Assembly: GCA_000934665.2 (NCBI GenBank)
Contig: KZ538292.1
Coordinates: 1 to 64,000, forward strand
Length of the DNA: 64,000 bases
Origin: Catajapyx aquilonaris
Taxonomy: Eukaryota
Direction of reading: 5' to 3'
In this document: positions 3,413 to 49,103 of the stretch, piece after piece
How the letters are laid out: each line of letters opens with the position of its first letter
Numbering within the stretch: position 1 is the first letter of the stretch
Translations under genes and position numbers: made by a program
The notes under the pieces: generated by a model
The model's input: the letters and a program-made list of their open reading frames with translations, nothing else
The model's database searches: none
What the model was told of the DNA's origin: nothing

Positions 3413-5996
3413 TCTTCAAAATATATACTACTTAAATTTTTTTTTAAAAATAACTCAGCATATCATAGTGCAAAGCAAAAATACAGAATATTTGATAATA
3501 ATTGATTTTAATGCTCCAACCATGATATAGCATTATAGCTGCTGGGATATGATCAAAAAGTGTAATAACCAATCAAACCACTCTGATTCTGCGCGCGCAT
3601 CGTAATGTTGCCACACTTACACAATGGTTGGGCAGTAATTTGTGTGTCTAAAACAACACTAATTCAGCCCTCAGATATTGTTTCTTTTTAAAAAACACAA
3701 AAAAACAGGGGTGTCGAGACAAAAAAAAAATCAGTTCTCCACCTTTCTCACCTAGCAATAACGCCTAACCGCTCCGTCATTACCCAACCGCAAAAAGCCA
3801 GTCTTTTCAAAGAGACCAAAAATTTCCACCATTGTGCTCCGAGTCCTTATTATTTTTCCCTCCGGCCTGGAAAATAGGACCGGATCACGAACACCCCATT
3901 CACATATACGCCCCCCAAAAAATAGACAAGCCACGTGGGAGCACAACTCTCTTTTTTAAAAAACGAAAAAAATGAGGAAACATTCCAATGCGATCATAGA
4001 TCACGATTAGTGCGGGCCTGCACTTCTCTTTTTTTTTCCTCCGGTAAAATAATTAAGCGTGGGCTAATTTCAAGCCGGTGCTAAAGCGAATTTTTCACGG
4101 CTCTCATGCACCGGTTACGGACTTTTTAAGCGAGCCCAAGTGGATGTCTTCTTGCATACTAAATAGCCGAACGTGATGGGTTACGCAAGGTGTATACCGG
4201 GTGCTTGTGAAGTTACTCAACAAGATGTGAATTTGTCTTCTGTTGGATAGAGTCGACATCTGCCGGCCATGTTCTAGACATATTTATACACCCGTTTTTT
4301 AATGCTTTAAAATTTATTTATTTAGTTATTAGGGGGAACCACCGTGTGAATTCAGCTCCAGATAGCACCCTGTAGCTTAGGGCAGACCCAAGATGGCTGG
4401 TTGAGACAACTTCCCCTGCAGTCTATTGGCATTACTCGGAGTGGATGGAAACGAGGAGCACAAGGAGCACCGAACCATCATTAATTCACACGCAGGTTCT
4501 AATTAGCACTCTCTCTCCCCCCCTCTCTCCATGAAAATCTTCCTTCTGCGTGGAACAGCTATTGCGAGAGAATCCACGCATAAAACATTAAGATGAATGT
4601 GGAAAGTCGACGTCATGCATAATTACTCTCCTTCCAGCAAGGCAAGCAGCAGCAGTTCGAGTGCTCTGGCTATTAGCCATGCTGTCAAGATGACAACGCG
4701 CCATCTCATTACCACAATACTACTCTATGTAAGCCTACGCAACCGTAACAGCCAGAGTGGAAATTTTCCCGGGGCTAGAGAGATATGAATTCTACTACCG
4801 TATTAAATTATTCCTCATGCAATGGAACAAGCATTGTCGCAATTACATTACATCAAAAGAGCCACCGCTGCCAAGTATTGTTGCAACAGTAGCCTACCTT
4901 ACGGCTTGGAGCAAGTGTTCGTACAGCCTGAGTAAGCTGCTCGAGAGTTACTTTTGAACATTTTTCTCTCTATAATCTCTAATGATTGCAGCAAGATCGA
5001 GCGTGCGAGAATTGGCTTCTCGCTCACGCTTCCGATTCTCGCCAGCTTGTGTGTTCCTAACCTATAACAAAAGACTGGGCTGAAAATGTTTGCTGTCAAG
5101 GCAGATGGAAATTCCTGGCCGACACGCATCGGGTGAAGGAACGACAACAGAGTTTGACACCTGCTTATAATTTGGGAACCCGTGATTGGTCGACAGCCAT
5201 GAATTTAACGGTGAGAAGAATACAAGGCGCCCTCTGAGCGAAGATGATACCAAGCACACTTTGGGACAGCTGTCTTCTTGTCCGGAAATCTCCCCAATTT
5301 ACAGTGATAAATGAAGAATGCGACGGACACTTGGACAGTAAATAATATTCCAGGCCCAATTTTGAAACAAATGGTTTGTTTTTCAGTGTTTGGCCAGAGG
5401 TCAAGGTAACTTCGTTGTTGTTGTAAACCGTGCTCAGTTTTTGGTACCTCCCTTACCTCAATGCCACCATTTTGGGTGCCAGAAAACTTTTTCCGGGGGC
5501 AGCCTAAACGCCTCATTAATACCCAAGTTGGCCCGGACATTCTTTTACTGGAGTCCTAGATATCCTCTGGCAAAGAAATGTGCAGAGTCGACAAACCAAC
5601 ATCGTAAACACGCTCTTTTTTTTTCGGGTTCTTCTTTCTTACCATCAGCTGACGTAAACTGCTCCTCACTTCCTTGCATACAAGCACAAGCTTTCTGCAT
5701 TTCGCAAATCGACTATACCATCGGTGCCTAAGACAAATCGCTCCCCCACGTCTTGTGTACAAGGCCCATTTCCGGACTCCGGATATCCCCGGAGTTTTTC
5801 GGTGGGGAGGAATTGACCCCCCCCCCCCCCCCCNCCCCCCTCTCCATACACTCCTTTTCCTACAAAGTTCCGGTTCCGTGACGGTCTCAAAGTCCGGGCC
5901 AATGTCACCACTTGTGTGGGCTGAAATATTTGCTTACGTTACCCTCGAAACGGATAGGGTGGGGTCTGTTGACTCCGGTGTTGTCGCAAAGATGGA

Positions 5997-6022
5997 GTAC
6001 TCACCTAGAAAGAGAGAAAATG
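5997..6022 (-). other. Candidate recursive splice site (ratchet point), AG|GT junction at 6005/6004
   Basis: The minus strand reads cattttctctctttctag|gtgagtac, a strong 3' splice site fused to a consensus 5' splice site. Downstream cryptic donors lie at 5942 (gtaacg) and 5937 (gtaagc). Confidence 0.6.
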
Positions 6023-9000
6023 CATGTTGTGATTTTTTTCATACAAATTTTTATTAATATTGTCGTAGTCATATCTTAGCCCTAATTTGATTAACTTGGT
6101 CGTTGCACCAGGTTACAGTAGGCCAAGGTTTTTCTCCCAAGTTATCTTCCCAACCCAAACGATCTCTCGCAGAGTCTCAAGCAGCATCCAATGTTGACCG
6201 AACCGGACGCGCTGGGTCAGAATAACCCCACTTTACGACAATCCCATAAGAAACATCCAACCGCAAAGAATATCCTGGCACAAAACCAAGGCACACACAC
6301 TCCGATAATAATAATAATAAAATAACAAAAAAAAAATATCCGGAGACCTCTAGTGGGTGGTAGCGGAAGCTGTGTCCGAAGGGACATGGTTTCCGTTTGG
6401 TGCCCTGAACCGTCGTGTAAACAACGTCGCGCCTCTCTTTGCAGTACAGAGAGCTGAGGAAATCGTTAACCCTGATCCATTGTGAACCTCGGACCCCAAA
6501 CCGCGCCGTAATGAGCAAATAAATCCTGGGAGCTACGACGCGAGACCATAATACGACTCCTGCATGGGACCACAGAAAACGCTCTGATTTAGGCACGACC
6601 CGGATTTTTTTCTCGGGGTGTATATAAAACCAGACTCGACACACACACACACACCAAAAAATACTATTCAAAACTTACATACACTACATATACTTTAAAG
6701 GGGCTGAATCAGAGCCCCCATATCTGTTATCCAAAGTCTGAAGAGGGCGCTATTTATGAGGGGTGTTTTGAATAAGAGGGTGGAAAGTTAGTTCTGGCAT
6801 CACCAAGTCGTTGTGAAGGGGTTGAAATTAATTTCGGGGTTTTGGGCGCCAAATATTTGTTTGCTTCATGCAGCTGCTGGTGGGGGTGCCAGGGGTTAAC
6901 TACTTATTAAAACAGGATTTAGGGGATTTCAAATCTCTAAAATCCGCCACAGTATGGGACAAAGAGAGTGCAATTTTTGGATGGTCCTCATTCAAATTTA
7001 CCTACACAGCTTTACATAGCCTACTAAGCAAATTAAGAATGATCTTTGATTCACATATACGTGTACGTATGTTCACATGTTATTATAAAATTGAAGGTTT
7101 GGTATTACAACCGGCCCTATACGTCTGCCAGCCTGTCGTTACACAACATTTTATTGTCGGTCAATGTATTGAAAATTATAAAGTACCCTATTAAATATTA
7201 TCGCTGCATTTTTTTTCTCGAAAAAAAATATCTCCACCTGCGACACTTTCAGCAATGCTGGGGTACAGTCAGAATACAGCATTCTTAAATTTAAATGCAG
7301 ACGTTTAATAAAATGTTGAGCAAATTATCTTCATTTGACGGAGTTCATTTTCATGATCCAGAATAGAGAAAACCAAATATTTTTGCCAATTTTTTGCTGC
7401 TTCCCTTTCAAATGTCGATCAAAATTCATCGATATTTCAATAAATCAAAATCACGTATTAAAATTCCACCTTACAATAACCACACGTAAATTATTCGAGT
7501 AACACCACAGACACACCATTATTGGCTGATCTGAATCACGTGACAACCTAACTATGTAGATAATCTCTCACGTCTTGGTAGCATAATAATCTCACCACCA
7601 CCCCCCCTTCCATCTTTTCGCGGGGCAAACTTTTCGGCGAAAACACTTTTAAATCCACGTGCTCAATAAAAAGAGAGGGATCCGAAGCGGATTTATCGGA
7701 CAATTACTCCCCCCGTCTTTCACTTAATAACCGAGATTACCAAACGTGCCAGAAGTGACGGAATCGATTTCGGATTTTTCATCAGTCAGCTCATCCAATT
7801 ACAAGAGCTGGAGAATCTGGCTGGTCCAAAGACCAAAGAGGAGAGGAAGCCCACCCTTCCAAAAAAAGAAGAAAAGAGAAGTTTCATATCTGCTGAGAAT
7901 CAGAAGCGGTCGAGTCCTCTCCAAAAAATCGCCACTTAAGAAGTGAAGATTCTTAAGGAAATGGAAGGGGGGGAGACCAACTCACACATACATGCCACGC
8001 AGCCTCTCCCCTGCTGAGAAAGGTAATGGAGCTAGGTGTTAGGATGTGTTCATTCTAACCCCCTTTAAGAGCACTAAAGGGCCGCGCAATTAAAGCGCCT
8101 GAGATGTTGCCCACGCCCCTCTCAATAATCTGGACATCTTTGCGTGTCATCTGATTGCTTTTTGGTCCTTAACACCCCTCGGAAGGAGGCGGTTTATTCT
8201 ACAAGAATGTGTTCCTGGTTCAATCTCCACATGAGAGTAACATATCATATCAGTTTCTTTACATGACGCTAGATGGCCCCGCCTGATCAGAGGGCAGCAG
8301 CGCATCCTAACGAAAGGTCTTGGAATCACAATTCATACAGACTTAATTTAATCCGCTATAATTCAGTAATCAGCAATAAAATCAAAACTGAACCACAACT
8401 TCCATATGAACTTAACCAACACAACACAACGCGACAAAAATTAAAAATTATCGCTAAATATGACCCCAAGTTACTGATGTAACATCAGATTGCTTTACAA
8501 GCTTGCAAAAAAAATTAGCTCGATTTAACAAAAAAAATTAATCCATTCCTAAGGCCATACCATGCGATAATAGCTAATCAAAACTCTATTTAAACTTTGC
8601 CAATAATTTACCACAATTAGCACGAGCCCATGAATTTGTAATTAGCTTACTACATTAACTTTGCATCCCCCCTCCAAAAAAAAATCAACCTTACCACACC
8701 CAAGGGCCTCGTAGACCCTCCACCCCCCAAAAAGTGGGTGGCCCATACCCCAAACTATAATTGAATTCCCCATAATTTCTAGGGGGGAAAAAAATATTTC
8801 CAGCCATATTCCGCCGTCGGGGCACCCCCATCATTATTTTTATGCCCACCGCTTCCCCCATGACCCTCCCTCATTTTTGCAATATCACAACGTGTCACTC
8901 CCAGATAAACACCCTTCCATCCGAAAAAAAAGCCCATTTAAGAACCGAAAATGTGAGTTTGTAACAGATGGATCTCGGTCGTCATCTGAGCGAAAAATAC

Positions 9001-10574
9001 GTTCCCGTCATCATCCCGTGGGTACACAGTAAATATGTACATGCAAGAAGAGCAGCAGGCTTCTGACTGGAGTAATGAGCCATGGCGTCCCATTCAAAAG
9101 CGACCCTACGCTTTTGTTTCCCGCTGGCCGCACATTGGTCATTCCTCATTCCCCCCCACCCCTTGTACCACACTATTGTGTCCATCATATTTTTTGAGGG
9201 GGGGGGGGGGGGNGGGGGTTGGAACCTAGCTTTACATCCGTGCTATAGAAAGTGTCACGAGCCCCAGTTGCAAAACACGTGACTGAGTAGCAAATGGCAT
9301 AATAAAGTAGCCCAAAATATCGGGAAGCTTCAAAAAAAAACTTAGCTGTGTGGTGAACGGTGGACGAGAGTGACGACAATGAATGATGTCCTGCACTATT
9401 GTTAAGAGTTAGACAAAATTGCGACGATCCCCTTACAATTTTTACATTAGTGGAGAATAAATGAATATAATATAGAATTGGCTCGGCTCTGTGCCTCTGT
9501 TTGCCAGCGGTGAATCATCAGATTTGTGAAAAGGTGAGCATCATCTATGTGAGAAACATTGTACTACGTTCACAGTCTGGGGGGTATAGTACAGGGCAGT
9601 GCTGCCAAATTTTGGCAAGTTACCTCTCGAATATGTAATAAAATAATATACTACAAATGTGATATAAAAATAATATAGGTCTGCATAATGATGTTGTATT
9701 GCAAAATAAAAATGAAGGAAAATTGAAATAATTTTAATCATTCACCCAGATATGCCTAGACTCTAGAGTCCTCCATATACGACACTTGTACAATTGTCAT
9801 ATTTTTATTTATTGGGTGTTAGTTCCTCATTAGCTAAAACTGAAAGAAAATATTCAATTTTTAAGGAAATTCAGGCATATCACACAGTATCTGGCATGTT
9901 CCAAAGTGTAAGCCGATATTAATAATAATATATCAAATATATGCTATGCACTGTGGTATATGACCAAAACAGCTGTCCCCAACCCCAAAAAAATCTGTCA
10001 TCAGTTTTTCTGGCGCAATATGTTTTTATGCCCCCCCCCCACCTCCCCCCCAACCCATTTCCAAAAAATGCTCACCCAGTAGGAAAATTTCCAGACTCCA
10101 TAACCCACACTTGTAAGTTTCCCGCAGAGTCAGGAGGTGCGAGAATCTTATATTTCGACCCAGATTTCTATGCGATCCTAGGTCTGCAGCTCCCCGTACT
10201 TACACACTTCCCTCTCTTCTCCATAATTGCAGGAGGTCCAGCCTATCGCAGCCCTAGATCGACTAGTGTAATGGAATCGCTCCGGAGTTAATTACCGCAA
10301 CTTTTACGGGGGCCAATCCGGGCACCAAATGGGTATGCAAAAGGGCCGTTTTCTTATTTTACAGCACAATATTTGCCGCGATAGGGTGACATCACGGTGC
10401 TTGCAAACGTGACGTAATTACGTGCAAAGGCTATATGCACACGTCAATGCGGAATTTAAGCTTTGTGAAGAATGACAAGTTTTTTTTTTGTGGGACACTA
10501 GGTCTCTTTTAGCTTTTTCTCTGCTTGGCTTGCCTAAGGACAATCGCTGTCAGCAACGCTCAACCTTGTTTGCT

Positions 10575-10610
10575 CCTTACCTGTCACCCTCTGGAAGAGT
10601 CAAGAGCAAG
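10575..10610 (-). other. Candidate 10-nt microexon (10590-10581) with flanking splice signals
   Basis: The minus strand reads cttgctcttgactcttccag|AGGGTGACAG|gtaagg. Confidence 0.35.
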
Positions 10611-14868: not shown

Positions 14869-16406
14869 TATCCCACGTTGCCAGTTTTCGCCCACTTCCA
14901 ATTGTTTAAAACAACCATTCTTTTTTACGACCCCGCCCCCTCCAAAATTGTGAAACATGACACTCGCTCCGGACATAAACCCCGCTTTTATAAACTAGTT
15001 TCCGGAGCCGAAATTAAGTGCCGGACCCGCCTCAGAAACACAAACCGTGCGTAAAAGAATGGTTGACTGCCGCATAAATCCCCTGCATTACTCATGCAAA
15101 CTTGCCACTCCAACCCCTAGATAGCGCTGTCTCTAATTTTTTTTTCTTCCCCCTCCTAGTTTAAAAGCTCCGCCCTCCTGGAGGCCGTGGCATCAGCGCT
15201 ATCTGGCGCTCGTAACCCAGAACTACACTCCCGAGCCTCCCCCCCTCTGAAATGAATTTCTATCGTGGAGGTTTCCTAGAAATGCCTTTGGACACCATTA
15301 TATCCGTGCTCTCATTCCGAGGCGGGGGTCCATTCTTTTGCGACAAATGCGGCCCTTACTGTCGAAAGTGGAAGCCCTTGCTCTCTTCGACGGAGCCTGA
15401 GGACTAGCGGGGGTTGGGGAAAAGACTATGGAGCTGGGGCGTGAGGCTTGGGACAAAGGGAAAAGGGCGGGAAAATGACACCCCCCACCCCCTTCCCACC
15501 CACAAGCCTCAGGCCACCCCCTCTATTCAGCAGAGAGAAACTACTCAAAGGACATGAGCACCAATAACTCTTCGCTTACAGGCTCATTCTTAACAAGCTG
15601 AGAGAGCAAAGTCGGCAATTCCTAACAATCTCTCTAGCGGTTTGCATATGCAGCCATTTTTTCTCTCTCTAAAGACGTACTTTCAAACTGACGGTCTTAA
15701 GTGAAAACCGGCATTAATCATGGACCGGCCTTTATTCGGTTGGATTAATGCGCCAGAGGCAAAAGCGACATGCACTAAATAAACTTGCAATTTGTTCGCA
15801 AAAATATTGTACAGCCTTGTTAGTGTACGCGACCTCCTTGGTTTTTTTGGGGGGAGGGGGAGGGGAGGCGGAGAATATTCGTAGCTCACGCCAACTGGTC
15901 GTCATAATAAAAACATGTTAACAGCAAGATCCTGGCCGGATATACCCGGTAAATATGTTGTAAAAGTCAAGGAACGGACCACGCTATACTGTGACTGCGA
16001 GGTTGTAAATGAATATTGGGGGGGCAGCCGCATTGTTCGTCGCGTGAACCTGAGTCGGTACAGTATTTGTCATGTTACCTTTAGAAACGAGGTGAAAATG
16101 AGGCCATACCTTGTAACATAGGAAATGTAACTTACACCGTATCTTGGGGACGAATGGTGGACAATAATTTTTTTTTTTGGTATTTACATTGTAAATAATT
16201 GCATCGCGTTTTTAGCTGACCTAGTTGCAGAGCATATTTTACCTAGGATATGACGAAGGTAATGATTACCTGCTTCACACAAGGTTTTCCAGTTTTACCT
16301 GAGTTAATCATAAAGCGTTTTTGTAGGAAATCAATAAATTATGTAGTAAGTTACAATTGCTGTGTCAGTTACGGCTGCCCGAAGACAAATAATTGCCATG
16401 GAATGC

Positions 16407-16600
16407 AAATAATTTTTGTAGTAAACGATTTTTTTTTTGTAGAAAATAAATAATTTTTGTAGAAATAATTTTTTTTGTAAAAAATAAATAATTTTTGTAG
16501 AAAATAATTTTTTTTGTAGAAAATATTTTTTTTGTAGAAAGTAAATAATTTTTGTAGAAAGTAAATAATTTTTGTAGAAAATAAATAATTTTTGTAAATA
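16407..16600. repeat. AT-rich minisatellite, ~20 bp unit (aaataaataatttttgtagaa-like)
   Basis: About 9 tandem copies of aataatttttgtagaaa with variable T-run lengths. Confidence 0.9.
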
Positions 16601-17892
16601 ATATAAAATGACTTTTGTCAATAACAAATAAATAATTGTGTAAAAGCAAACAAATTAATAATTCCGTAAAAGTAAACAAATAATGTGTAAAAATACATGA
16701 ATAACTACTCGTATAATAAACGACAAATTAATTATCTTATTCTTTACACGAGGTGAAAAATAATGATTTGCTATTTTGCCATAGAAGTTGCTAAGACAAA
16801 TTCTTCATTCTGTCAGTGTACACACAGGCAGTAAAATATTTACCGGACTCAATTTGCCCACAATACCACACAGCTCCCATTTTAACATGCATGGAAAGGA
16901 AGAACAAATTGGTGGAAAATTGCGACCCAATCATAATTTCACATCCCCGTGAGGCCTCCCAGTGGGCACGTTTTCAATCATTACCGGGCCTACCCATCCA
17001 TAAATTACCCGAAACATTCCTGACACACAATATTACTCTATTCTTTCCAAAAAAAAAATTTTTTTTAACAATCCGGCGCCTTCGCAATATCTGATCACAC
17101 CAGAGGGAAGCAGCGTCGAGAGGCGCCAGATTTAAAATTCAAGCCTGCCATTTTCTGCCAGTCTAAAATTGAATATTGGCAAGTCCTGGCCCTAGGGGAC
17201 CATTCAAAACGCTCTACACCTGCCAAGTTAGGACCGGTAGCAACTATCTGGTTATGAATCCCGCGTCCATACAGGCCTCTCTGGACACGCCACATCACTT
17301 TCCTGCCAAAAAGCTGTCAGTAAGTTGGCAGGGGCAGGTTGGAGGGGGTGTTTTAGTTGCAAGGGACACGAGGCTTCCAACACCGCTTAATTACCTGCTG
17401 GTGTTAGGAAGAGACAGAAGAAGAAAAAAAAACGCGCGTTTTTTCCCCATTATATCCGGAAAAGACAGCGTGAGATTCACACCCTACTGCGAGGATTCGC
17501 AGTTAATTGGACCGGATTGTCGCAAGATGGGAGGATTTTTCTCTGGGAGTTCCAGGGGGTGACATATAGAGTGCGTGACTATCAGCGTTCCTGTGCTTCC
17601 CCCTGGCCTCCAAGACTATAAAGTGGGGCTCTTATGGGCCAGAGCACCCAGCTTTCAAGGGATGCGATCCATACATTGAAGGGGGGGGGGGGGGCTTTTG
17701 TGCCCCCTCAGGCTCTTTAGAGGGGGGCTAAAACCCCCCCTAGCAACCTCTGCGTGCCAATGAGAAAATCGGATTAAAGTCTGGACAATGCGCGGCGACG
17801 ATAAGGTCGAAGGCAATCAAATGTGATCAAGTTTGTCGGGTATAGAGTGAAGGCACGGGGCTGGACATGCGGTGCATCAACCTCCATATCGC

Positions 17893-20902: not shown

Positions 20903-21204
20903 TCTATATAGCTCAATAAAGCCGTTTGTGAGTCTGTCTGTTTGTCTGTCTGTCCGCCTGCCAACCGTCATTTGCCTGGCATGAGTGCCATCTGTGTTCC
21001 ACCCCCAGGCCGGGAGAGGATGGAGATGCTGGGGGTTGATTACAGATGGCAGGCAAATGACGGTTGCCGTCATACAGGCGGGGGAGGCTGAAGGTGTTGG
21101 AGTAGCAGGACCACAGATGGCATTCGTGGGCGGACACACAGAAAGACAGACAGTTGACTGCTGACTACAAGTACGTGTATGGGTAGTACGCACGTGAGGA
21201 CTAG
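20903..21204 (+). mobile_element. Non-autonomous Helitron-like element (copy related to 31707-32072)
   Basis: Begins A|TCTATATA and its first ~70 bp are nearly identical to the 31707 copy. It contains internal inverted copies of its own 5' part (21043-21068, 21111-21152). The probable end is an imperfect hairpin followed by CTAG|T at 21201-21205; the 3' end is less certain. Confidence 0.65.
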
Positions 21205-31706: not shown

Positions 31707-32072
31707 TCTATATAAATAAAGCCGTTTGTGAGTCTCTCTGTCTGTCTGTCCGCCTGCCAACCGTCATTTGCCTGCCATCTGTGGTCCGGGTGGGAAGGAC
31801 GGGAGTGGTTGCAGCTGAGGTGGGATTAGAGTATATCCAGATTGTGAGCAGGTGGGGGGAGGGAGCGCCGGAGAGATACTATTGTTCTCCAGCGGCTTAA
31901 TAAGGAGCAGATGGACAAGGTGGCACGTGCAAAAGTCGACTTTTTGTCAAGTCCAAAACGGCTGGGAAAACTGTCATGGCGGCTCTCTGTGCGTGAAAAT
32001 TTTGACGGGGCTACTGGCAGGTGTTTTCCCTTCATTCATTTCTTCCCGAGCAACGCCGGGTGCCGCAGCTAG
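31707..32072 (+). mobile_element. Complete non-autonomous Helitron
   Basis: 5' end A|TCTATATAAATAAAGCC with a (tctg)n tract near the 5' end. A 3' GC-rich hairpin cccgagcaacgccggg (32045-32060) lies 8 nt before CTAG|T (32069-32073). It is inserted between A and T with no TSD, matching canonical Helitron termini. Confidence 0.88.
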
Positions 32073-33594: not shown

Positions 33595-33736
33595 CTATCG
33601 GGTTCAAATACTTTTGGCCACTCTATCCTGGTCTTGAAGCAACCCTTCGCACAGACCACACGTTAAGGAGGTGTGTATGTGTGAAGGTTTGCTTCAAGAC
33701 CAGGATAAAGTGGCCAAAAGTATTTGAACCCGATAG
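33595..33736. mobile_element. Palindromic MITE with TA target-site duplication (Tc1/mariner-type)
   Basis: TA|ctatcgggttcaaatacttttggccactctatcctggtcttgaagcaa...ttgcttcaagaccaggataaagtggccaaaagtatttgaacccgatag|TA. The ~60-bp arms are almost perfect. Confidence 0.88.
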
Positions 33737-33770
33737 TACTTTGGACCAAAACATTGCAAATAAAATAACT

Positions 33771-33866
33771 ACTACAGTCCTGTACGGCAAAGAACAACCT
33801 GACGTCACACCAGCCGTATTTTCTGAGCATGCGCAGTAGTATGCTTGCAGAGCGATTCGGGGGCAT
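33771..33866 (+). repeat. Dispersed repeat, copy 1 (copy 2 at 50643-50733)
   Basis: The 45-bp core 33818-33862 matches 50685-50729 at 42/45 positions. The upstream actacagtc...caaagaac...tgacgtca is also shared. Confidence 0.85.
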
Positions 33867-38128: not shown

Positions 38129-38329
38129 TTCTTCATAGTAATACGTATACGTATACGTTCTTCATAGTAACACGTATACGTATACGTATACGTATACGGT
38201 CTTCATAGTAACACGTATACGTATACGTATACGTATACGGTCTTCATAGTAACACGTATACGTATACATATACGGTCTTCACAGTAACACGTATACGTAT
38301 ACGTATACGTTCTTCATAGTAATACGTAT
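38129..38329. repeat. Nested minisatellite: tcttcatagtaac + (acgtat)n
   Basis: Six units of 29-41 bp, each with a constant head and a variable number of 6-bp GTATAC/ACGTAT repeats. Confidence 0.92.
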
Positions 38330-41300
38330 CAGGAACAATTACTGCTTGAGTTTTACTTATTTTAAGCTTTAAAAACATCAAAAATTTCTCAAATTTCGGG
38401 ATATTTCAGAGCAATCAGAGACTTGCTAAATCACAACCCAAGTGCTCCAAAAAAATCGCCGTTTTTTGTCGCCATCAAAGTGTTTCCTGGGACAAATGTC
38501 ACGTTTAGAGCTGTATTCAACAGCCCCCGTGGCTTTTCGCCAAAAAAGCTTGCAAAAAATAGGGAGAGTAGAGCGGATCCAATTTGCAATTTGGCCAACG
38601 GCTATGGGGGATGTGGGACGTACGGTTTTTTTAGGGAAGGGAAGGCCTGGTCAATCGTTCATCTAAGAAACCGCGGCCAGTTCGTGCTAGCTTCTCAGAT
38701 AAAAAAGAAAAGGAGGCAAGAAAAGGAGAAAGACGGGAAAGGGGGGGGGGGGGGCAGCAGCTGTCCCTTTTCGTTCCAACCCTAGATAACATCGGCTTTA
38801 CCTCTTTTAATCGGGGATTGCGGACCACTCCAAATGACCTCCCTGGCAGAGAATCCGCAATTTGTCCCCAACCAAAAGCGCTCTATCGCGTAATCTTGCC
38901 AGCGGAGCGACTTCTGCGCAAGTTGTTTACGCGCAGCTACGTCACACCTGGCGCAGTAAATAGCTGTTATTCTGCTGGTGGTATATCAGTTGTTCTTGAG
39001 CGATCTAGCAGAACTGATGAACTGGACTATATTGATGATGCAATACATCCCGCAGACATGAGGTTTAACTCTCCGGCCGATATGTACATTTTTCAACAAA
39101 AAAAAGAGTTACATTCCCTCATGTGGAACCGGGCATGGGGGCAATCAATCATCTCGCTTTTCTGCCACTCGTCCCGATTAATATCAATGCAGTTTAGTCC
39201 TAATCCGGTTAATCCGACCGGTCTTATTCATCATCGCTACGGAGTGAAAATGCAGTTGCAGTTCGGATTGCCATTAGATATGCATTATTCTAGGGATTCC
39301 TGAAAAAAAAAAACCCTCGATTAGTCGATACGTGGATATATTTTTTCGGCCGTTGGGCGCATGGGGGGGGGGGAGGCAGAATTTCGCATATTTTTTCAAC
39401 AAAAGGATGCCAGCCATTTGTTGGGGAGAAATAAAAACTATTCGAAATTCGGACGCTCTTTAGAATTCGGGTCAGCAGGTACATGCCCTTAGGATCAAAA
39501 TGAAATATTTACAGCAGAGAATTCCACATTTACAGAACTGTACTCCACAATGTACTTCCACAATGTGTACTGAACTGCATGAAGGAAAAAAATAAGCGTG
39601 GAAATTCATGCAAGATAAACCATTTTGGGGAGAAAAATTAGCCCACCGTTCATATAATTATTGTCCAGCATGTCTGCGTAAGACATGGTTTAAAAAGTCA
39701 TAAGTCACATTGTTCGTCCAAAGATCAGATAAAAATTCAGCATGCTTTTTAAATCCAAAATATCTACTGTACTTACAGCGTGTTTCATAAAATAGCTCAT
39801 ACCCAAAGCGGTAAAAATTATGTCTGCTAAATGTTTGGTCTATGATGGTATTTGCCAAAAAAAAATCGGTTTATATTCACCTTCGAACAAGGATATTACC
39901 AAACAAACGAACTCACCGAGCATATTCTACCCCAAAAAATCTGCCATTTTCCGCCATTGTGTAAGTTTTTCCGATGCATTCCACCATTACACTACAGCAA
40001 TTCCACCCAAAAAATTACTCAACCAGCACCTGCAATTGAAACCAATTTGCAAGCTGATACCGTGCCAAAAACACCGCTCCTCTCACAGGAAACCTCCCTT
40101 GAATTTTACACTCTTCCAAGGAGCCGGAAAAAAAACAAGGAGCAGCAAACGGTGCACTAGACTCGAGGTAATTGTTTTCCTTCGCATTCCTTATACCCTT
40201 CCTGTGATCGCCAAAGTTTGCTAAAAATCCGGGCATTTGAACCGCACAACTGCTGAGCTGGGACGGCTTCTCCGGAGACAAGAGAAGCCTTACCCCCTTT
40301 TTGCTTTTTCCATAAACCCCCCCACCCTTATCTAGGAGGCAGCAGGGCGCAATTAGAAAGAACCATCGCAGCCTAATAAGACAAGGGGCCTCTGACTCTC
40401 CAAGTTTATTCCTTGTGTCCCTGGGCTCCAGTAACAAGGACGAGAATTACAAATGCAGGAATAAAGGCAGCTCCCCCCCCNCCCCCCCCCCCCCCTCAAC
40501 TACTTCTCCCCCATCGCCATTGAGCTCTCTGAATTAAAGCTTGGGTGGTTGGGATCCAAAATGGAAAAGTTTATCCGAGGGGGTTGTCGCATAGGGTTTG
40601 GTCTGGCCAGATTATTTCCTATGGAAGCTGTTTTTCTGGAATAAATAGTTAAGGAAATTGTCACATTTTTGTGCCAGATTGTACCCAAAAACTTACATGA
40701 ACCTACGCCGATTGATACACCGTTAATGCAACACAACTCCTCTCATACTTAGCTGGCCAAACATGAAATGGGCCGCGGTACATCATCTCGCCAAGCATAC
40801 ATAACGAGTGTTAATTTGCATTAATGTGCCCTAATGGCCCAACCCGTTGTATTTTTTTAACTCTTAAAATTTTTAACAACAGGTCACAAGCATAAGGTCG
40901 CATTATCACTGTTGGCGAATAAAAAATTGCGACCTTTCTCCCCTTAAAAGTTTTACGACACTGCTTGCCAAAGGAACGCAGCTGCACGCAAGACATTGAA
41001 ATGGCTCGAAAATTGGATCGTACAACAAACCCTTCGTAACAGCCCCCCCTTTCCAACCCTCCGGACTATTCAAGCCTAACTCAATCTCGAGGATTTCCAA
41101 ACTATCCTCGTTATCTTCTCTACCTGGGATTGTTTCCCATTCGATCACCCATTTTCCTCCTCCCCCAGTCCCCCACCCTTCTGCTTCTGGTCCACAACTT
41201 TCCAGATGAGGCGTTACGATTCATCTCATGCACTTCATCTAGAACTCGTCACCAGTGTTTAATCGGATTTTATTCCCGCTTCATATCCCTACGATCAATT

Positions 41301-44300
41301 ACGAGATTGGCCATGTCTAGGGACAACCCTTGCCACCCCTTCGCCTCTTTTTTTTTTTAAAAAAAGGGGTGACAGTTACCACCTAGTCAATTTCTATGGG
41401 GTAGTAAAATTGCATTAAATTCATTTTTACGCTACCCCGTGATAGGCCCGTTCAGGGGGGTGGAATACCACCATCTTTCAATTTTTCTGTACGGTAATTT
41501 CTCTTCTGACGTTCTTAATTAATTATTAACATGGGTAATATCTTTGGATGAGCAGTTTCGTTTCCTTTTAAATTAGAGTTCCCCCCCAGATGTTGTTCAA
41601 CAGACAATGGTTTTCATACGGTCGTGTCCTGTCCGAGCCGCGCAATTAGACGCAGGAAACAGCTACCCCCCTTTGCTAGTATGGCCGCGATAACTGTTCC
41701 ATACATTAGGACCGAATGGGCCCCCACTTGCTGCTGGAATTGCAAGGAGAGAAGGTGGGGGGAAAAAGACCTTCAAAGATGTTTCATCCTGACCTGGTAG
41801 CCAACCCAACAGCCTCTTTTGTACGACCAGGTGGCGTGCAAGTCAGGGGTAAAAAGCGGCTGGAAAAACATCCGGAACACCCTGTACAGTACGTTCGCCC
41901 CGACACCACACGCTGCCCGAGGGCCGGTCCTAATAAAACGGACGCCAATATTGGCTGCACCCCACATTCCGGACCCGGTATCCGAATCATCTCGAAAGGT
42001 CTTTTGTGACCATGACAAAGGCCATCTTTTGGGGGGTGGGAAGGAGAAGGTTGGGCAGGATATCAATCAAGAGTTTTTTTCCCCACTCTTTTTTCCTTCA
42101 AGGCAAGTATTGACTTTTTCGGTAGCGGTGTACATGTTATTAATCGTCTGAACCCCCCCCCCCCCTCCGGAAAAAAATTATGTAGGGTAACATTGCACCG
42201 TGTTATTAAAGATCATGGCGCTGTCACGATTTCGAAACGCGATATCGTCATGATAGCCGTTAATGACCGACCAAACCGTAATCCATACACCTGCCCGCAT
42301 TGCAACAACTACACAAAAAAAAAGCTAGGTTCAAACGTTTTTTTTTCTGTCTCTTTCCTGCGGGGAATTCAAAACATACCGTTCGACTACTTTTTGAGCG
42401 CTTTTTGCATTACAGCGATCGAATTACTAGAGTCCTGTCGCTCGGCTATCGTTTCCATTACACGCCTAAAATCACTGCTGATTGCTGATTGCAACTAGCG
42501 GCAGGAAAATTATTTTCACAAAAAATTTATCAGCCGTGATGCTGCTGCCCCCCCCNCCCCCCCCAAAAAAATTGCTAAGTAAAGCCATACAGGCCCGTAT
42601 TGGGCATCAGGTAAATTTTTGACTAGAGCACTATCTGCCCTTTCAGGGTTTCAGATCAAATATTTTCTTCGGTTCTAATTAAAATGCCTCCGAAGCTCCG
42701 TTAATTATTTTAATGAAACTCTAATTAAATTTTGATTACAAATAGTTTCACAGCTCATGCACTGCGCACATTGCACTGCAGCTCAGCTTGCACAGTGAAC
42801 AGTCACATAAATTCAATCCAAAATCTGCTGTTTGTCCACAGTGAGTCATCTGAGAGTGCCATCTATGCGAAGGATCTGGTACTACGTGAACAGTGTTGCC
42901 AGGTTTTGCACTATTTTGCCCATCAGCTTCTGCAAGAGTCAATTTGCATCACCTAGATTATGACCCTGGACAAATCTGGCACAATTTGGACTCCACACAT
43001 CTCTCCCTTGAACTCTATCATCCCCCCCCCCTCTCTATTTTTTCCCCCTACGTTCCAATTTCCATCCCATTTTCCTCCAGCTTCCTTCCACCCCCCCCTC
43101 ACATCCCCTGATGAGATAACCCAATACCCTGAGAGCATGCAGGGGAACGAGAAAGAAGAAGGGGGGGGGGGGGGGGGAAAAGATGGTAGCAGGGGTCTTG
43201 GCGGTCACAGGACACCACCTGACTCCCNACGAATTCGGCTTCTTCTTCCCATCCCCCCCCCCCAACACCTGATCCTTCCTCCCACATCCCCCCCCCCAAA
43301 CCCATGGCTGGAGAACAAGGATAGAACTATAGAGTCCAGGATGACTTTCTAGGGGAGGAAGAGGGGAGAAGGTGACAAGGGACGAACGGTTTCGAGTTGA
43401 TTGCAAAGCTTTACCGAGGTAGAAGGAGACTGAAATCTTGCGCAGACTTGGACCGGGATGAAATCCACTTTGCAATGGCGTTCCCAAGTGAAAATGGAGG
43501 AGCAGGGAAATGCCAGTGTGTCCCTAGAGGCACCTGCGACAGTTTTACAAGAGTGTGGAGCATCTCCCCCCATCACTTCACTTCTCTACCAAAAAGAAGA
43601 AAAAAAAGGAGGATCTTGGGTCTGGCACGTTTAACCAACCGTATATTCCTCCCCCGGTGGGCTGGGAAAAAAGATGCAGTGTGGAGTCACCTCCGATAGA
43701 GCGCGCCCTAGATCCAAAATGAAAATGGCGGAGGTCTGATGGGCAGGGTTGCCATTTTATATTGCCCCTGTTGGTTTCAATTCAAATATTGCCCAGTCGA
43801 GGTAGCATAATTAATTATATACAGTAGAATTGAGTCTGTGCCTCTGTTTTTCCAGGATGAGTCATCAGCTACAGTACCCCCATCATAACTTCTCAAAAAA
43901 GGGGTGAGGCGACCTCTCCCCCTCCATTCCCCACCGGACACCCTAAGCGATCTGATTCGTGGAGCAGATGGTGTGAGGCCTCTGCTCCACCAATCCGATC
44001 GGAGGGTACAGTGGGGTACAAAAGAAATGCTATTTTGAAACCCTACAGCTGAACCACAGAGGACATGCCTTTTTTTGTGAGAAGTTAGGATGTGGGACCT
44101 ATAAATGCAGTAGTGTGCAAAGCAGGAGCGCCATCTATGGGAGATGTACAAACTCCAGAAAATATTTTTCGGATGGAAAAGAGCCGAAAAATGGTATTGT
44201 TTACTCCAATTAGTGGCGAAATGTTTTCTGAAGTTGGAGCAACCGGCCCTATATTGCTGAACTGTTTTCCACACGACACCACACCGCCTGAAAATTAATC

Positions 44301-47300
44301 CCAGTCGGCCATCACAATGCTCAATGGGCGCAGCCATGTTGGTTATTGCTCGCAACGCTCCCACTTCTCTCAAGCTTCCCTCAGTAATTAGTCGAAAAGC
44401 CGTTGTCAACTTAATTATTCCTTCGTTTCCGGTCTCCAAGCCTTGCCTTTGAGCGACATGAGTGACAATGCAACGCTTCTGTGTGCAGCACACACGCGTA
44501 ATTAAATTTTAATCACGTTAAAATCCTACGCCATTGCGCCACTGGAATGTTCCCTTCTTACTCCCTCTTTCTTCTTCTCTTTTCCGTAGAAGGGTGGTAA
44601 GGTATATATAGATAGTGAGAGAGAGAGAGAGAGAGCCCGGAAAAAGCAGTTTGAGAGATGGATTGCCCCTGGGCCAAATCCACACTAGGATTCCTCTTGC
44701 AACGAAATGGTTGTTCGGCCTCCGGATTACAAAACTTTCGGCTTCCGGACAGGGAAAGGCGTTGATCTTGTATCTGCTGTACTGCTCAAGCGTGACGGAG
44801 GACGGACCACTTTTTCTTTCTGCTGATGGAAGGTGAATTTCGGACAAGAAGAGATGTGGAAGAATTTCATGAAACTACAGCCATCTGCGTCTCCACTGCG
44901 ATCAGTATTTGCCCTTTGTTATTTTATGGAAAATATAACGCCCCTGTGTGAAAAGGAAATTACAAATATTCCACGACTTTAAATAAGTGGTGAAAAATTC
45001 AATTTTTCTTAACATTGACCAACCTTAGACGTCCAAAAGATGGCGAAAAACCACGCTAAAAATGGTCCTATTTTTGAAGAGCTCAGACCAAAAAAAGGCG
45101 CAGTGTTTTTAATCTTTTCGACAGGCGGATCATTTTTAATCCGTTTCCCTGGCGACCAATATGGAGTCGGTCGGATTATCAGAGGGATCAGGGGGACAAA
45201 AACCGGTGTCACAAGACATGCCGCTAATTAATAATCCATTAATTTCAGCATGGGCTGGTGAAGGAATCGATCATATTGTTAATACGTTCCCTGCATTATT
45301 GTATAGAAATATTTGGCCATTCATGCAGGCTTTGCAATAGCATTTCATGTATAGCATTTTGGTAGCCAAGTTCAAAATTCACCTCGCCAAAAAATGTCAT
45401 CTGTTTTCTAAACCTGGCCATCTAACCTTTTCTTATTTTTTCCCAGAGAAAATCCTCCTTACCTATCCCATTCCTCTCGGATGAGAATTTGGAGGGGAAA
45501 GGGACAGTCCCTGGACCAACTTAACTTGTGCAACACGAAAACAAGAGCCAGCTGCCCTGTCCTCTCAGGGTCCCCATACATCTTGAGGTGGCCGCAACTT
45601 CCTTGAACCCTATTACGTCCGTACATTTTTTTCTCTCTCTCTCCCTCCCTCCTTCCCCGCCTTCCCCCTTCCTTCCTCCTTGCCTCCGACAGACTTTTAC
45701 AGCCTATTAGGCTTGACCACAGCTGCGGTTTCGAGGTGCTTTCCTCTGCTCCCAAAGGCGCATTTCCTGCTGGCCCTTTTCCGCACGCCGAATGCCATTT
45801 CCTCAACCGGACCTCCCTATATACCTGCCTCCCAGCTAAAACATGGCTCCGGTTTAGACATGCTATCCGGGGTCCGGTTTCCGTGAGTGTCGACTGCAGT
45901 TGCGATTTTACATCTTAAGAAATCTGCACCACTTCAGCATCAACATCAAACATGTTTGATCCCACCTCATGATGTCAAAGCTCTAATTGTTTTTAAAAAG
46001 TGAAAAATTCAACCATTTCAATAGGCCTACTGGTACTATTAACGATCCTAACATCTATGTTGGGGAAACCCCGCCATCGCGTGCCTCATGGTGCGCCATC
46101 TATCTTGAGCGTCCTAAACTCGACCTGACACTATCGCGTCCTCGCCCACAGGCTGTCCCCTTGCATCTTTCATTGCCCTGGCAGCACAATAGGCCGCCTC
46201 CTTTTCATCAGGCCCATCCAAGCACATTGATATTTGACGACTAATAACCGCAATGATTATGGGGAGTATCCAGGCCCTCCTAAAGACCTCACAAAAGGGA
46301 ACCCCGAGACTTGACAGCCAATAAAACCTATGTCGCCCAGTTATGACCGTTTCATTTTATGACCTCCTAGACTCCCAGAAAGCTTCCCCCTTCCCCCCAA
46401 AAAATAAAATAATATAGCCAAGCTTCAACCGTGTCAAGCTCTCTTTTACGGTCTCCATTATTGCTACCCAGGAATATTATTGAACCCCGAGTGTAGCCTA
46501 GGTGTAGAACCGGGTCGGTGTCTCCAAGGAGCGCACAAAGCGACATGCATTTCTCAGGCTAATTGTCGTCCCCAGTGTCCCGGGGTACTTTATGCGGCCT
46601 TAATTATCATGACAATGGTGCGTCAGAGTGTGTGGTATATAAACAGGGCTCTTTCCAGCGGCAGGACCCGGGCAAGTAATTCAGGCGAGCCTTGCCCTGA
46701 AACCAAGTTCCATTAAGGGCAAGCCAGCACGAGCGGAAGGTAAGAAAAGGAGAGGGTAATGCGAGAGGCCCCTGGAGAAGAAGAAGATGGGGGAAAAAAA
46801 GGGTTTCGCCGAAGAACAACAGGAAGCGCGACGGGGATAATTCAACAGAGGACATTGGTTCTCCTAACAGCCGGAGCGCCCTTTTTCTTAAAACTTCAAA
46901 GAGGTTCGGGGTCCTATTTTTTTCAGGGGAAGAGCTGTGTGTTCTTTGAGAGGAGAATAGGAATTGGGGCAGTTGCTTTCACAGAGGATCCTTCCCCGGA
47001 TCTCATGAGACGTTCAATTTCTTTTCTTAAGGTGCATCGAGTAGTTACGTCGTAATGAGATATGTGGGGAGGTATGCCACAAAAGAGCAGCACCGAAAAT
47101 GGGGCTTGCAGTGGCAGGGTTATTCACATGAACTAACGGTAATGGAAGCCAGATGGTGTTCATGGCTCGTGTGAATGATCATGTTCGAGGGTCGAAGAAC
47201 TAGTGGTCATTATCTGCACACACTAGCTGTCTACTTGTGGGTTGACTGGGTACATAAACAACAATCGAGACCCACATTCGACTCTTGTCCTATCCCAAAA

Positions 47301-49065
47301 ATGGGTTGTCTCACTTTTAGTTACATATTTTTTTCATATTTCAACTATGTAGAAGGAAATTATTCAGAGAGCAAAGATCCCATCAATACAGTTAGCACCC
47401 CCTATTGAAGACCCTGTCCGCAATCTCCCCACATTTGTAAAACACCGGTGCCAAAAGACGGATAGGCCCAGGCCCTTTTGATTAAGTTGGGTCCCGGACC
47501 CATCAAAATTAGTTTTCCCTTCACCCACCCACCCACCCTGCAACCTAACAATGAGACTGTGTCTGCCTGAGACCGCGTGGAAGGAACACCAATGCCCCAC
47601 TCTGTATTCCGCAGCCTGCGTTAATTCATTATGAGAAACGTTCAGAAGGGCCCTAAATCATTTTCAACCCAAGGTTTTGAAATAAATGCAAGCCCTTCTC
47701 CCCTCCACCTCCCTACCCCTACCCTCACCCTCCAATTCCTTTAATTTTAAGCAGCGAATGGAAAAGGGATGCTTTTCAACCCCTACAATGACGCCCAACA
47801 CAACCATTTGTCAAAACGTCTCTCAAGAGCCTTCCCCAAATTTCGGGTCCCCCAATTATAAGCATAACGAAGTTTGGATTTGTCAAGTGGGCCTTTCCAA
47901 TCGATTGTTGGGAGGCCGCATTGTGCAAAACCGTGTGCACGCATACCAGACACCAACAGCAATTAACCCGTCGCTACTCAGGTGGCGTCCTTAAGTTTCT
48001 CGACTTCCAATCAAAAAGTTTGGTCAATTAAGCCACATTTGAGATATTAACAAATTTAAACAATATTTCCCCCCAAAAAATGAATAACCATGGGGTCATA
48101 AAGCGGGTTCAACCCAGTTCGCATATGTTCCCAACAAATGACCCACACATTCCGATGCGGAACTTCCGGAGAGCGTGTGTCCGGATGTGCGTGTATCCTA
48201 CCTCAAGGCGCCAGTTTTGAAAAGCGGTCGTTCATCATTCCCTGATCAATACGTGTGAAGCCCAGCTGACCCACTCTCGACTCGACTTTTATGATGTGAC
48301 CAGCCCTTTCCTCTCATAATGGTTCTCTTTTTTTCCTCCCTGAACGTTGTTGGGTGGGGGTATAGGGAGAGACCCTGCTTACTCTTCTACAATATCAGTT
48401 ACTGTTGGCAAGCCCGAGTGGCAGCTGTTGGGAAGGGTGGAGTAAAAAAAATCTGGGCTTGGGTTTCCCGCAAAGAAGGCTTTCCCCTGCTGTTGGCAGT
48501 GAAGAATGGCCTGACATGGGGTGCAACTAACTACTGGCAAAAGTTAACCCCACGCCCCACCATAGAATCTCAGGGAAACAAATGGGAGAAAATTTACACT
48601 CTCACCTTAAAATATTCACTGTATACATGCGTTATGAAACAGCACAACATCCTCTGGTGGCAATCTCCTGATCCTACTGGTGACAGCTTACTCTGGGCCA
48701 TTAAAACCGAATGTGTCCGTCAACCCCCACATTTCTATATTAATCTAACGCTTTAAGAGCCTGGTTTTAAGAATTCACTTGTTGCCGCCTCATCGGAGCG
48801 CGCCTAAAAGTCGAAACGAGCGCATTAATGGCGGCCATTACACCCACCCGGATGAAGCGTCCATCCGGGGTAGTTTGAGCCCACCGTCAGATAGCGCCCC
48901 CATCGAGTAAACAGGGACTCCTTTTCCCTCAGTCCCGGGCATTTATGTTCATGAGGGCGGTGGGGGGGAACATGCAAATGGCGTCCCCCCAATCAGGAAA
49001 GTTGCTGCGCCCACGTCCACACCGTTTTTCATTACGAGCTTCCAGCCATCGCCTGCTAACTCCAG

Positions 49066-49103
49066 GTACTCACCTGGAAAGAGAAAGAGAGGGGGTAATT
49101 AAC
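49066..49103 (-). other. Candidate recursive splice site (ratchet point), AG|GT junction at 49074/49073
   Basis: The minus strand reads tgttaattaccccctctctttctctttccag|gtgagtac: a branch-point-like TTAAT, a 20-nt pyrimidine tract, CAG, then consensus GTGAGT immediately after. Confidence 0.65.

Follow-up and report, generated by a model that had tools for sequence, protein, structure and literature searches.

Candidate recursive splice sites located 43 kb apart on the minus strand of a 64-kb stretch of DNA

The paired sites and the surrounding DNA

The window analyzed here, a stretch of 64,000 nucleotides, carries on one of its strands two short sequences, separated by 43 kb, which are referred to below as site 1 and site 2. 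On the plus strand, site 1 reads GTACTCACCTAGAAAGAGAGA (positions 5997 to 6017) and site 2 reads GTACTCACCTGGAAAGAGAAA (positions 49066 to 49086), the two being the same at 19 of 21 bases. Read on the minus strand, site 1 consists of ttttctctctttctAG followed directly by GTGAGTAC, with the G of the GT at position 6004, while site 2 consists of ccccctctctttctctttccAG followed directly by GTGAGTAC, with the G of the GT at position 49073. Each site, therefore, presents a long pyrimidine tract (17/20 pyrimidines upstream of the junction at site 1 and 20/20 at site 2), a YAG trinucleotide and then GTGAGTAC, placing an AG/GT core together with a GTRAGT donor, and both carry T residues at −6 and −5 and a pyrimidine at −3. 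The first-pass annotation, which had reported two similar loci 43 kb apart and had read them on the minus strand as a polypyrimidine-YAG tract followed by GTGAGTAC, was correct on both counts, the latter reading also agreeing with the sequence features published for ratchet points of Drosophila, TT at −6/−5 among them.

The likeness between the sites is restricted to the splice-signal core, namely, the intron-side tract and the donor, as opposed to exon-like sequence. Across flanks of ±300 nt, the best local alignment is represented by the 19-nt core alone, and identity in register outside this core is mostly 2 to 9 of 20 per 20-nt block, with a single block reaching 12 of 20. As the alignment ends at the core and no repeat family of at least 40 nt in the window takes in site 1 or site 2, the earlier statement that the flanks are dissimilar and that the sites do not form a TE pair is upheld.

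It could be argued that the shared 19 to 21 nt represent a DNA-level element, be it a short dispersed repeat, a mobile-element terminal fragment or a protein-binding module, in which a GA-rich run lies beside CACCT(G) on the plus strand. The window indeed harbors several short dispersed repeats of 20 to 56 nt, and site 2 includes CAGGTG, which we take to be an E-box-type hexamer. Site 1, however, reads TAGGTG, which is not an E-box, and the similarity ends at 19 to 21 nt and coincides exactly with two splice signals, unlike the true short repeats of the window. Furthermore, only two copies of the 21-mer occur within the 64 kb even when two mismatches are allowed, and the DNA sequencing run shows no surplus of contigs over site 2, the summed contig depth at this position (29) being at the single-copy level. 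A DNA-level element is, on this evidence, a highly improbable explanation. The same DNA run, one of four from a single sample from which the window may derive, covers all 30 bins of positions 44001 to 64000, and its contigs total 257 Mb. The only other run returned by a search for runs sharing sequence words with the window, which was of unspecified kind and had almost none of these words, touches a short repeat at positions 50645 to 50769 as the sole part of this interval, and RNA runs were absent from those returned. Among the metagenome contigs scanned, none contained an exact match to the 19-mer common to both sites.

The window is without detectable coding sequence, a finding compatible with a location in a long intron as well as with a gene desert. 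No Pfam match at the curated cutoff was obtained for the 88 ORFs of at least 100 amino acids (aa) on both strands, for all 289 minus-strand ORFs of 45 to 99 aa or for all 197 plus-strand ORFs of 55 to 99 aa, out of 324 plus-strand ORFs of 45 to 99 aa. The two matches below the cutoff were CENP-I (15.6 bits) and YMF19 (17.8 bits). The longest stop-free frame in the window spans 243 aa, and neither a tRNA scan of the window nor an Rfam search of it at the gathering score yielded a match; at an E value of ≤1, Rfam returned 25 sub-threshold miRNA-like matches, which fell on palindromes and microsatellites. Because the 64-kb window yielded neither an exon or promoter of a host gene nor a flanking splice site, its designation as an intron is an assumption.

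Composition skew is ambiguous with respect to the direction of transcription. On the minus strand, T exceeds A by 3.2% and G exceeds C by 5.3%, and the observed/expected CpG ratio of the window is 0.77, a value which does not look vertebrate, as vertebrates are typically strongly CpG depleted. According to the literature, an excess of T over A is the direction generally found on the sense strand of introns, while a sense-strand excess of G over C is reported for vertebrates and runs counter to the direction reported for invertebrates (Drosophila). The skew leaves orientation unsettled, since the G excess follows the vertebrate direction, yet the CpG ratio is not vertebrate-looking. No independent orientation signal was obtained from GGTRAG (20 versus 20) or from AATAAA (73 versus 38, or 59 versus 38 once two tandem arrays are set aside; P = 0.41 relative to what base composition would predict).

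Occurrence of the composite motif relative to chance

Pairs of 21-mers with at most two mismatches form 31 direct and 29 inverted clusters in the window, mostly consisting of low-complexity sequence or short repeats, compared to 0 to 2 direct and 0 to 3 inverted clusters in five block shuffles. Because some 60 such clusters are present, an identity of 19/21 is unremarkable by itself, and the weight which the first-pass annotation had put on the near-identity of the sites was misplaced, as a shared splice consensus yields such identity. This is illustrated by a D. melanogaster recursive site tabulated in Pai et al. 2018 (PMC6110457), which has 19 contiguous bases of site 2.

It is the composite motif, and not the 19/21 identity, that goes beyond chance. 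A strict version of this motif (at least 15/17 pyrimidines at −20 to −4, followed by YAG/GTRAGT) was observed at two positions of the minus strand and at none of the plus strand, against a mean of 0.002 in 1,000 dinucleotide shuffles, while for a looser version (at least 13/17 pyrimidines) the shuffle mean was 0.047 and the probability of two or more occurrences was 0.003. Such shuffles underrate the frequency of CT-rich tracts in real DNA, which is corrected in part only by an empirical null, in which the 28 strong 3′ splice-site-like sites of both strands, 15 of them minus-strand and 13 plus-strand, multiplied by a GTRAGT frequency of ~4e-4 give an expectation of ~0.011. Overall, between 0.002 and 0.05 occurrences of a strong 3′ splice site fused to GTRAGT are expected per window, compared to the two seen on the same strand. 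Among the 367 AG/GT junctions in the window (185 on the plus strand and 182 on the minus strand), only sites 1 and 2 pass a combined filter of at least 12/17 pyrimidines, TT at −6/−5, a pyrimidine at −3 and a donor match of at least 4/6, and no comparable site is found by this filter on the plus strand of the window.

These counts bear directly on the proposition that the sites are chance or nonfunctional look-alikes, that is, CT-rich tracts followed by AG and GTGAGTAC in DNA which is not transcribed or is otherwise spliced, picked from very many windows. The site pair was selected by eye out of a very large scan, and a per-window chance of ~3e-5 for a same-strand pair leaves room for a chance pair somewhere in a scan of that size. 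The number of 21-mer pair clusters, the frequency of strong 3′ splice-site-like tracts on both strands, the ambiguous or absent orientation signals and the lack of an identified host-gene exon in the window are all compatible with look-alikes, as are two properties of the sites described below, namely, that a canonical branch motif is absent from the usual interval upstream of site 1 and that site 2 has no downstream donor. What speaks against look-alikes is the excess of composite sites over the per-window expectation, their restriction to one strand with no plus-strand counterpart, and the presence in both of TT at −6/−5 and a pyrimidine at −3, features which lay outside the original match criterion and which are near-universal in fly ratchet points. 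Weighing these points, we consider a chance origin to be unlikely, albeit with a probability that is far from negligible.

Structure of the individual sites

Donor halves were scored against the 9-position donor consensus, and branch-point-like sequences were assessed against the YTNAY consensus. The 3′ splice-site half of site 2 (positions 49074 to 49105, minus strand) includes two branch-point-like motifs, TTGAT (A at −32, position 49105) and TTAAT (A at −26, position 49099), after which come a tract of 20/20 pyrimidines, with T residues at −6 and −5, and a terminal CAG. Its putatively regenerated 5′ splice-site half (positions 49066 to 49073, minus strand) is represented by GTGAGTAC, with CAG/GTGAGT agreeing with the donor consensus at 9/9 positions. 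The corresponding 3′ splice-site half of site 1 (positions 6005 to 6024, minus strand) contains 17/20 pyrimidines (15/17 at −20 to −4), TT at −6/−5 and a terminal TAG. AG is absent from the 60 nt upstream of site 1, and the sole YTNAY branch-like motif is located at −50, with no intervening AG, so that no such motif falls within −36 to −21. The donor half of site 1 (positions 5997 to 6004, minus strand), which would likewise be regenerated, again consists of GTGAGTAC, with TAG/GTGAGT agreeing with the donor consensus at 8/9 positions.

The stretches downstream of the two junctions are pertinent to a further alternative, in which expressed exons starting with GTGAGT (microexons, untranslated-region or poison exons; compare the Ubx microexons) would use the sites as their 3′ splice sites, whether ordinary or alternative, with no single recursive segment between them. 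Such exons could be indicated by a frame downstream of site 2 which is free of stops for 40 codons (positions 48952 to 49071, minus strand) and by a donor located 67 nt downstream of site 1. After site 2, however, the two other frames close within 5 codons, and no donor of at least 7/9 is found within the next 200 nt, where donors of 6/9 occur at +51 and +189 (a 7/9 donor follows at +226). A homology search with the 40-aa frame gave 23 word-sharing candidates, none with an E value of ≤0.01, this search being a weak one for a 40-aa query, and two open frames of 46 and 49 aa overlapping the same stretch, which were among 139 ORFs scanned, had no Pfam match. Given the lack of both a homologue and a donor of at least 7/9 within 200 nt, the 40-codon frame is not supported as a coding exon. 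The 46-aa frame, which starts after an in-frame TGA at the junction, has two weak matches to long repetitive proteins (E values of 2.3e-6 and 7e-5), for which no Pfam family scored above the cutoff; these matches are uninformative in this regard, because an exon starting at the acceptor cannot use that frame.

The stretch which follows site 1 (positions 5938 to 6004, minus strand) may represent a 67-nt cryptic RS-exon, ending at the weaker donor AAC/GTAAGC (7/9, with its GT at positions 5937 to 5936). None of its three frames stays open beyond 22 codons, and its length of 67 nt is not divisible by three, both of which argue against an expressed exon, as does the confinement of the inter-site similarity to the intron-side tract and donor. 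Because a donor of this kind would follow a random minus-strand position with a probability of 0.17, its presence at +67 lends weak support to an RS-exon. Taken together, we deem it improbable that the sites are the 3′ splice sites of expressed exons.

A third minus-strand TAG/GTGAGTAA is present at positions 27281 to 27300 (junction 27289), about midway between sites 1 and 2. The pyrimidine tract preceding this AG/GTGAGTA junction is weak (8/20), and the region around the junction is palindromic and MITE-like. The junction was rejected as a further recursive site on these grounds and is probably nonfunctional.

Proposed recursive splicing and comparison with known systems

Sites 1 and 2 are, in our view, strong motif-level candidates for Drosophila-type recursive splice sites acting on minus-strand RNA, a reading which we would put at a little above even odds (a probability of roughly 0.55). 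Under the proposed model, RNA would be transcribed from the minus strand, running from high to low window coordinates, and an upstream exon, located outside the window or undetected within it, would initially be spliced to the acceptor at 49074/49073. GTGAGTAC would then lie directly behind this exon, so that a 5′ splice site would be regenerated at position 49073. The regenerated site would in turn be spliced to the acceptor at 6005/6004, with removal of the 43,069-nt segment between the two, following which the donor regenerated at position 6004 would be used again in splicing to the next acceptor downstream. We infer minus-strand transcription, the use of both sites and the surrounding DNA being one intron, while the claims of an intron of >43 kb and of a new lineage, as made in the first-pass annotation, are unproven.

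More tentative, and in our estimation short of probable, is the broader proposition that fly-type zero-nucleotide ratchet points, characterized by TT at −6/−5 and a long CT tract, work outside drosophilids and here divide an intron of >43 kb within a genome that would not exceed some 250 Mb. If this were true, the specialized ratchet-point signal would be an older shared device rather than a peculiarity of Drosophila, and non-drosophilid ratchet points would enlarge the thin evidence for fly-type ratchet points elsewhere. Should the sites be used, they would mark a recursively spliced giant intron at two precise, testable coordinates. In practice, the sites are of modest value, since the mechanism is well known and the present result is a prediction. 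Zero-nucleotide ratchet points are said to have been reported in Drosophila by Hatton in 1998 and by Burnette in 2005, motif-based prediction of recursive sites was reportedly already made in 2005, and the original vertebrate study of 2015 reportedly dealt with long neuronal genes in which recursive splice sites are accompanied by RS-exons.

In the vertebrate studies concerned (PMC6224609, PMC6110456, and PMC8797253), the recursive sites of long neuronal genes resemble the candidate sites described here in having an AG/GT core by which a donor is restored once the first splicing step is complete. Vertebrate recursive sites are reported in very long introns, whereas in the present case the intron is assumed. 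The excesses of T over A and of G over C on the minus strand of the window are also in line with the sense-strand pattern reported for vertebrates. In contrast, the extended CT tract and TT at −6/−5 are a fly hallmark, and no RS-exon donor is evident at site 2. The CpG ratio of 0.77 likewise differs from the strong depletion of vertebrate DNA.

With respect to fly-type ratchet points elsewhere, the titles and accessible texts returned by a literature search included only a locust prediction, which combined a motif with RNA immunoprecipitation. In that study (PMC8892266), a recursive site was predicted in the 230-kb intron of locust NPF1 with a fly position matrix, and a branch point was put forward along with a polyT/C tract. 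The locust site thus resembles those of the present window as a motif-based call outside Drosophila, yet, according to the same text, it is backed by U2AF65 RNA immunoprecipitation, while the sites described here are called by sequence only. For mosquitoes (Anopheles), no dedicated study of recursive splicing was evident from titles and abstract openings, and one paper mentioning both recursive splicing and Anopheles refers, in its accessible part, to recursive sites for Drosophila only.

The closest parallels are those with Drosophila, in which ratchet points have been defined by RNA evidence together with conservation (Duff et al., 10.1101/006163). Three differences from the fly are apparent: site 2 is without an obvious RS-exon donor, site 1 is without a canonical branch motif at −36 to −21, and the excess of G over C on the putative sense strand runs opposite to that reported for Drosophila introns. 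The resemblances begin with the juxtaposition of acceptor and donor at AG/GT, the unusually strong pyrimidine tract, more prominent than that of ordinary acceptors, TT at −6/−5 and GTGAGT, recognized here from the nucleotide sequence; TT at −6/−5 is carried by 196 of the 197 ratchet points reported in flies, compared to 43.8% of ordinary introns (Duff et al., 10.1101/006163). The core also agrees with published fly recursive sites, for which a motif column in the supplement to Pai et al. 2018 (PMC6110457) lists AGGTGAGT 51 times, AGGTAAGT 37 times, TTCCAGGT 23 times and TTCTAGGT 11 times. Recursive lariats in flies have their branch point, usually an A, at −36 to −21 (Duff et al., 10.1101/006163), an interval which includes the candidate branch A residues at −26 and −32 of site 2. 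The surroundings of the sites are free of ORFs over tens of kilobases, in the manner of Drosophila ratchet points, and the 43-kb spacing falls within the 2.6 to 63.6 kb of fly recursive segments, the host introns of which exceed about 11 kb (Duff et al., 10.1101/006163). Finally, fly RS-exons, as described by Joseph/Lai 2021 (PMC8605326), are cryptic, short (~50 nt) and usually out of frame, with a donor weaker than that of the ratchet point, and site 1 is likewise followed by a short out-of-frame stretch with a weaker donor at its end.

Two composite splice-site motifs on the minus strand

Two minus-strand loci spaced 43 kb apart, each with a 3′ splice-site-like sequence fused to a donor-like sequence, are regarded here as strong candidates, at the motif level, for recursive splice sites of the fly type in a minus-strand transcript, a reading to which we assign a probability of about 0.55. 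By direct sequence reading, the core of site 1 spans positions 5997 to 6017 (+ strand GTACTCACCTAGAAAGAGAGA) and reads ...ttttctctctttctAG|GTGAGTAC on the minus strand, with 6004 directly following the AG; the core of site 2 spans 49066 to 49086 (+ strand GTACTCACCTGGAAAGAGAAA) and reads ...ccccctctctttctctttccAG|GTGAGTAC, with 49073 in that position. Re-reading both loci bore out the coordinates and the 19/21 identity of the cores reported in the first-pass annotation, as well as its remark that the flanks are dissimilar: across ±300 nt the best local alignment comprises the 19-nt core only, and in-register identity elsewhere approximates background. Both sites possess an AG|GT core, a pyrimidine tract, and TT at −6/−5 relative to the junction. 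Site 2 is preceded by two branch-like motifs, TTAAT (A at −26) and TTGAT (A at −32), and site 1 by one only, at −50, with no AG between motif and junction.

Near-identity of two 21-mers within the window is, taken alone, not unusual. Allowing up to two mismatches, pairs of 21-mers form 31 direct and 29 inverted clusters here, mostly microsatellites and homopolymers with a few real short repeats, and the same count in block shuffles returns 0 to 2 direct and 0 to 3 inverted clusters. The unusual part is the content of the shared sequence, an acceptor and donor composite, rather than mere identity. This composite motif, counted as at least 15/17 pyrimidines at −20 to −4 followed by YAG and then GTRAGT, occurs twice in the window, both times on the minus strand, and has a mean of 0.002 across 1,000 dinucleotide-preserving shuffles; at a tract threshold of 13/17, the shuffle mean is 0.047, with two occurrences reached in 0.3% of shuffles. 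A null built from real sequence, in which the strong acceptor-like sites (15 on the minus and 13 on the plus strand) are multiplied by the GTRAGT hexamer frequency of ~4e-4, predicts ~0.011 composite sites. Sites 1 and 2 are also the only 2 among 367 AG|GT pairs to pass a combined filter for tract, TT at −6/−5, Y at −3, and donor. That the two are chance look-alikes is considered unlikely, given two composites against 0.002 to 0.047 expected per window, although the per-window probability of a same-strand pair, roughly 3e-5, does not alone dispose of a chance pair, as this one was chosen by eye from a very large scan.

Repeat content and assembly

The shared sequence might instead represent a DNA-level element, a reading which we consider highly improbable. 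In line with the first-pass annotation, to which the loci did not look like a transposable-element pair, neither site lies within any repeat family of at least 40 nt; only two copies of the 21-mer (up to two mismatches) occur in the window, their similarity stops at the core, and the bin containing site 2 has a summed contig depth of 29, the single-copy level, in the DNA sequencing run covering 44001 to 64000, where depth rises to 160 at a genuine short repeat 1.6 kb from the site.

Several other repeats were observed. The short dispersed repeat at 50645 to 50770, of which 56 nt recur with 89% identity at 33811 to 33866, has a summed depth of ~160 versus ~29 elsewhere, and is the only part of 44001 to 64000 touched by a second, non-source run; a depth of 187 over 44001 to 44667, versus the same baseline of ~29, points to another multicopy segment. 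A small dispersed element with the core GGTGAGTCATCAGCTA occurs at 3013 to 3041, 19761 to 19784, 43814 to 43876, and 9467 to 9521, comprising three close copies and a fourth, weaker one with 71% identity over 55 nt. Near-perfect long hairpins at 26974 to 27121, 27146 to 27255, and 33593 to 33738 (with arms that match at 92% over 73 nt and at 94% over 64 nt) are probably MITE-like palindromes, their matches to Rfam microRNA families being subthreshold (at most 45 bits against gathering scores of at least 79). A third minus-strand AG|GTGAGTA at 27289, near the midpoint of the two sites, was not counted, as it has a poor tract and lies inside a palindromic MITE-like region. Of three tandem arrays (3216 to 3430, 16393 to 16622, and 38137 to 38345), two are A/T-rich minisatellites, one with 13- to 29-nt spacings and the other with a period of ~19 nt, and the third is of ACGTAT type, with a 35- to 41-nt period, and also palindromic. 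Segments of ~80 nt at 20905 to 20987 and 31705 to 31783, 10.8 kb apart in direct orientation, share 83 to 90% identity.

Nineteen C/G runs of at least 10 nt (e.g., 5817 to 5840, 40473 to 40495, and 43161 to 43177) were counted in the window, and at least eight of its ten N, all single bases, fall inside or directly beside such runs, which suggests that homopolymers were miscalled in the assembly. Two alternative contigs of the DNA run (depths 19.8 and 9.4) cover 54483 to 54643, differing by three substitutions and four indel gaps, a pattern suggestive of local heterozygosity or polymorphism. In total, the contigs of one DNA run amount to 257 Mb.

Downstream sequence and genomic surroundings

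The cryptic RS-exon is described by Joseph et al. 2021 (PMC8605326) as short (~50 nt), poorly conserved, and usually out-of-frame, with a terminal donor weaker than that of the ratchet point. Downstream of site 1, AAC|GTAAGC is located at +67, a donor of a quality that 17% of random minus-strand positions precede, and all three frames are stopped within 22 codons. The 200 nt downstream of site 2 hold no donor above 6/9; of the three frames there, one is open for 40 codons and the other two meet a stop within 5. This open frame favors an alternative, in our view improbable, in which the sites are expressed exons starting with donor-like sequence, against which stands the finding that the 40-aa peptide has no relative among longer proteins, itself a weak test. 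A neighboring frame is irrelevant, as it starts past a junction stop, and its two weak matches to long repetitive proteins are meaningless. On the + strand, 50283 to 50497 holds 71 open codons followed by CAG|GTAAGTAC, a perfect donor-like sequence; the translation is proline-rich, of low complexity, and without a Pfam family, so that an exon here is improbable.

The whole window (GC content ~44%) is non-coding in appearance. Its longest stop-free frame (243 aa) resembles random translation, no Pfam family reached the cutoff among 88 long, 289 short minus-strand, and 197 short plus-strand open reading frames, and searches of the window returned no Rfam family at gathering score, no tRNA, and no host-gene exon. 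A long intron, an intergenic desert, and a non-coding transcript fit equally well.

With respect to direction, PMC5786239 presents sense-strand T>A as general, G>C as a vertebrate pattern, and C>G as an invertebrate one. On the minus strand here, T exceeds A by 3.2% and G exceeds C by 5.3%, the skew spanning most of the window (26 of 32 two-kb segments show negative GC skew on the + strand). With homopolymers of at least 6 nt masked, the + strand asymmetry (C>G 5.3%, A>T 3.2%) persists at 4.7% and 2.6%; its cause could be transcription or replication. CpG depletion is only mild (observed/expected 0.77), which we take, against typical values, to be un-vertebrate in look. As T>A is general and G>C is vertebrate-type but the CpG content is not, the skew speaks half for and half against a minus-strand gene. 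Cryptic-donor and poly(A)-signal hexamer counts in the window gave no independent direction signal.

Comparison with described ratchet points

Recursive splicing is a well-known mechanism, whose sites have been predicted from motifs for twenty years. The present pair, if real, would be a further example, of more interest only if the host lies outside the drosophilids. The one non-drosophilid case found in our literature search is the locust, described in PMC8892266 by a motif-plus-RIP approach; among papers that mention recursive splicing together with Anopheles, judged mostly by title and abstract opening, no mosquito study of the process was apparent.

Ratchet points, i.e., zero-nucleotide recursive sites, were defined by Duff et al. 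(preprint 10.1101/006163) from RNA, by way of junction reads, sawtooth density, and lariats. They were reported to be strongly conserved and to have a pyrimidine tract more prominent than that of ordinary acceptors; TT occupies −6/−5 in 196/197 cases (43.8% for ordinary introns), most branch points fall at −36 to −21, host introns measure 11 to 133 kb, and excised segments 2.6 to 63.6 kb. Sites 1 and 2 share the AG|GT core, tract, and TT with these Drosophila sites, and their 43-kb spacing falls inside the segment range. The 19-mer common to both had no match in a metagenome scan. Among the fly recursive sites tabulated in a supplement to Pai et al. 2018 (PMC6110457), the motif column holds AGGTGAGT 51 times, AGGTAAGT 37 times, TTCCAGGT 23 times, and TTCTAGGT 11 times, and one D. 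melanogaster site listed there is identical to site 2 over 19 contiguous bases. A consensus this long and strict can by itself bring two unrelated recursive sites close to identity, and it accounts most economically for the 19/21 match between sites 1 and 2.
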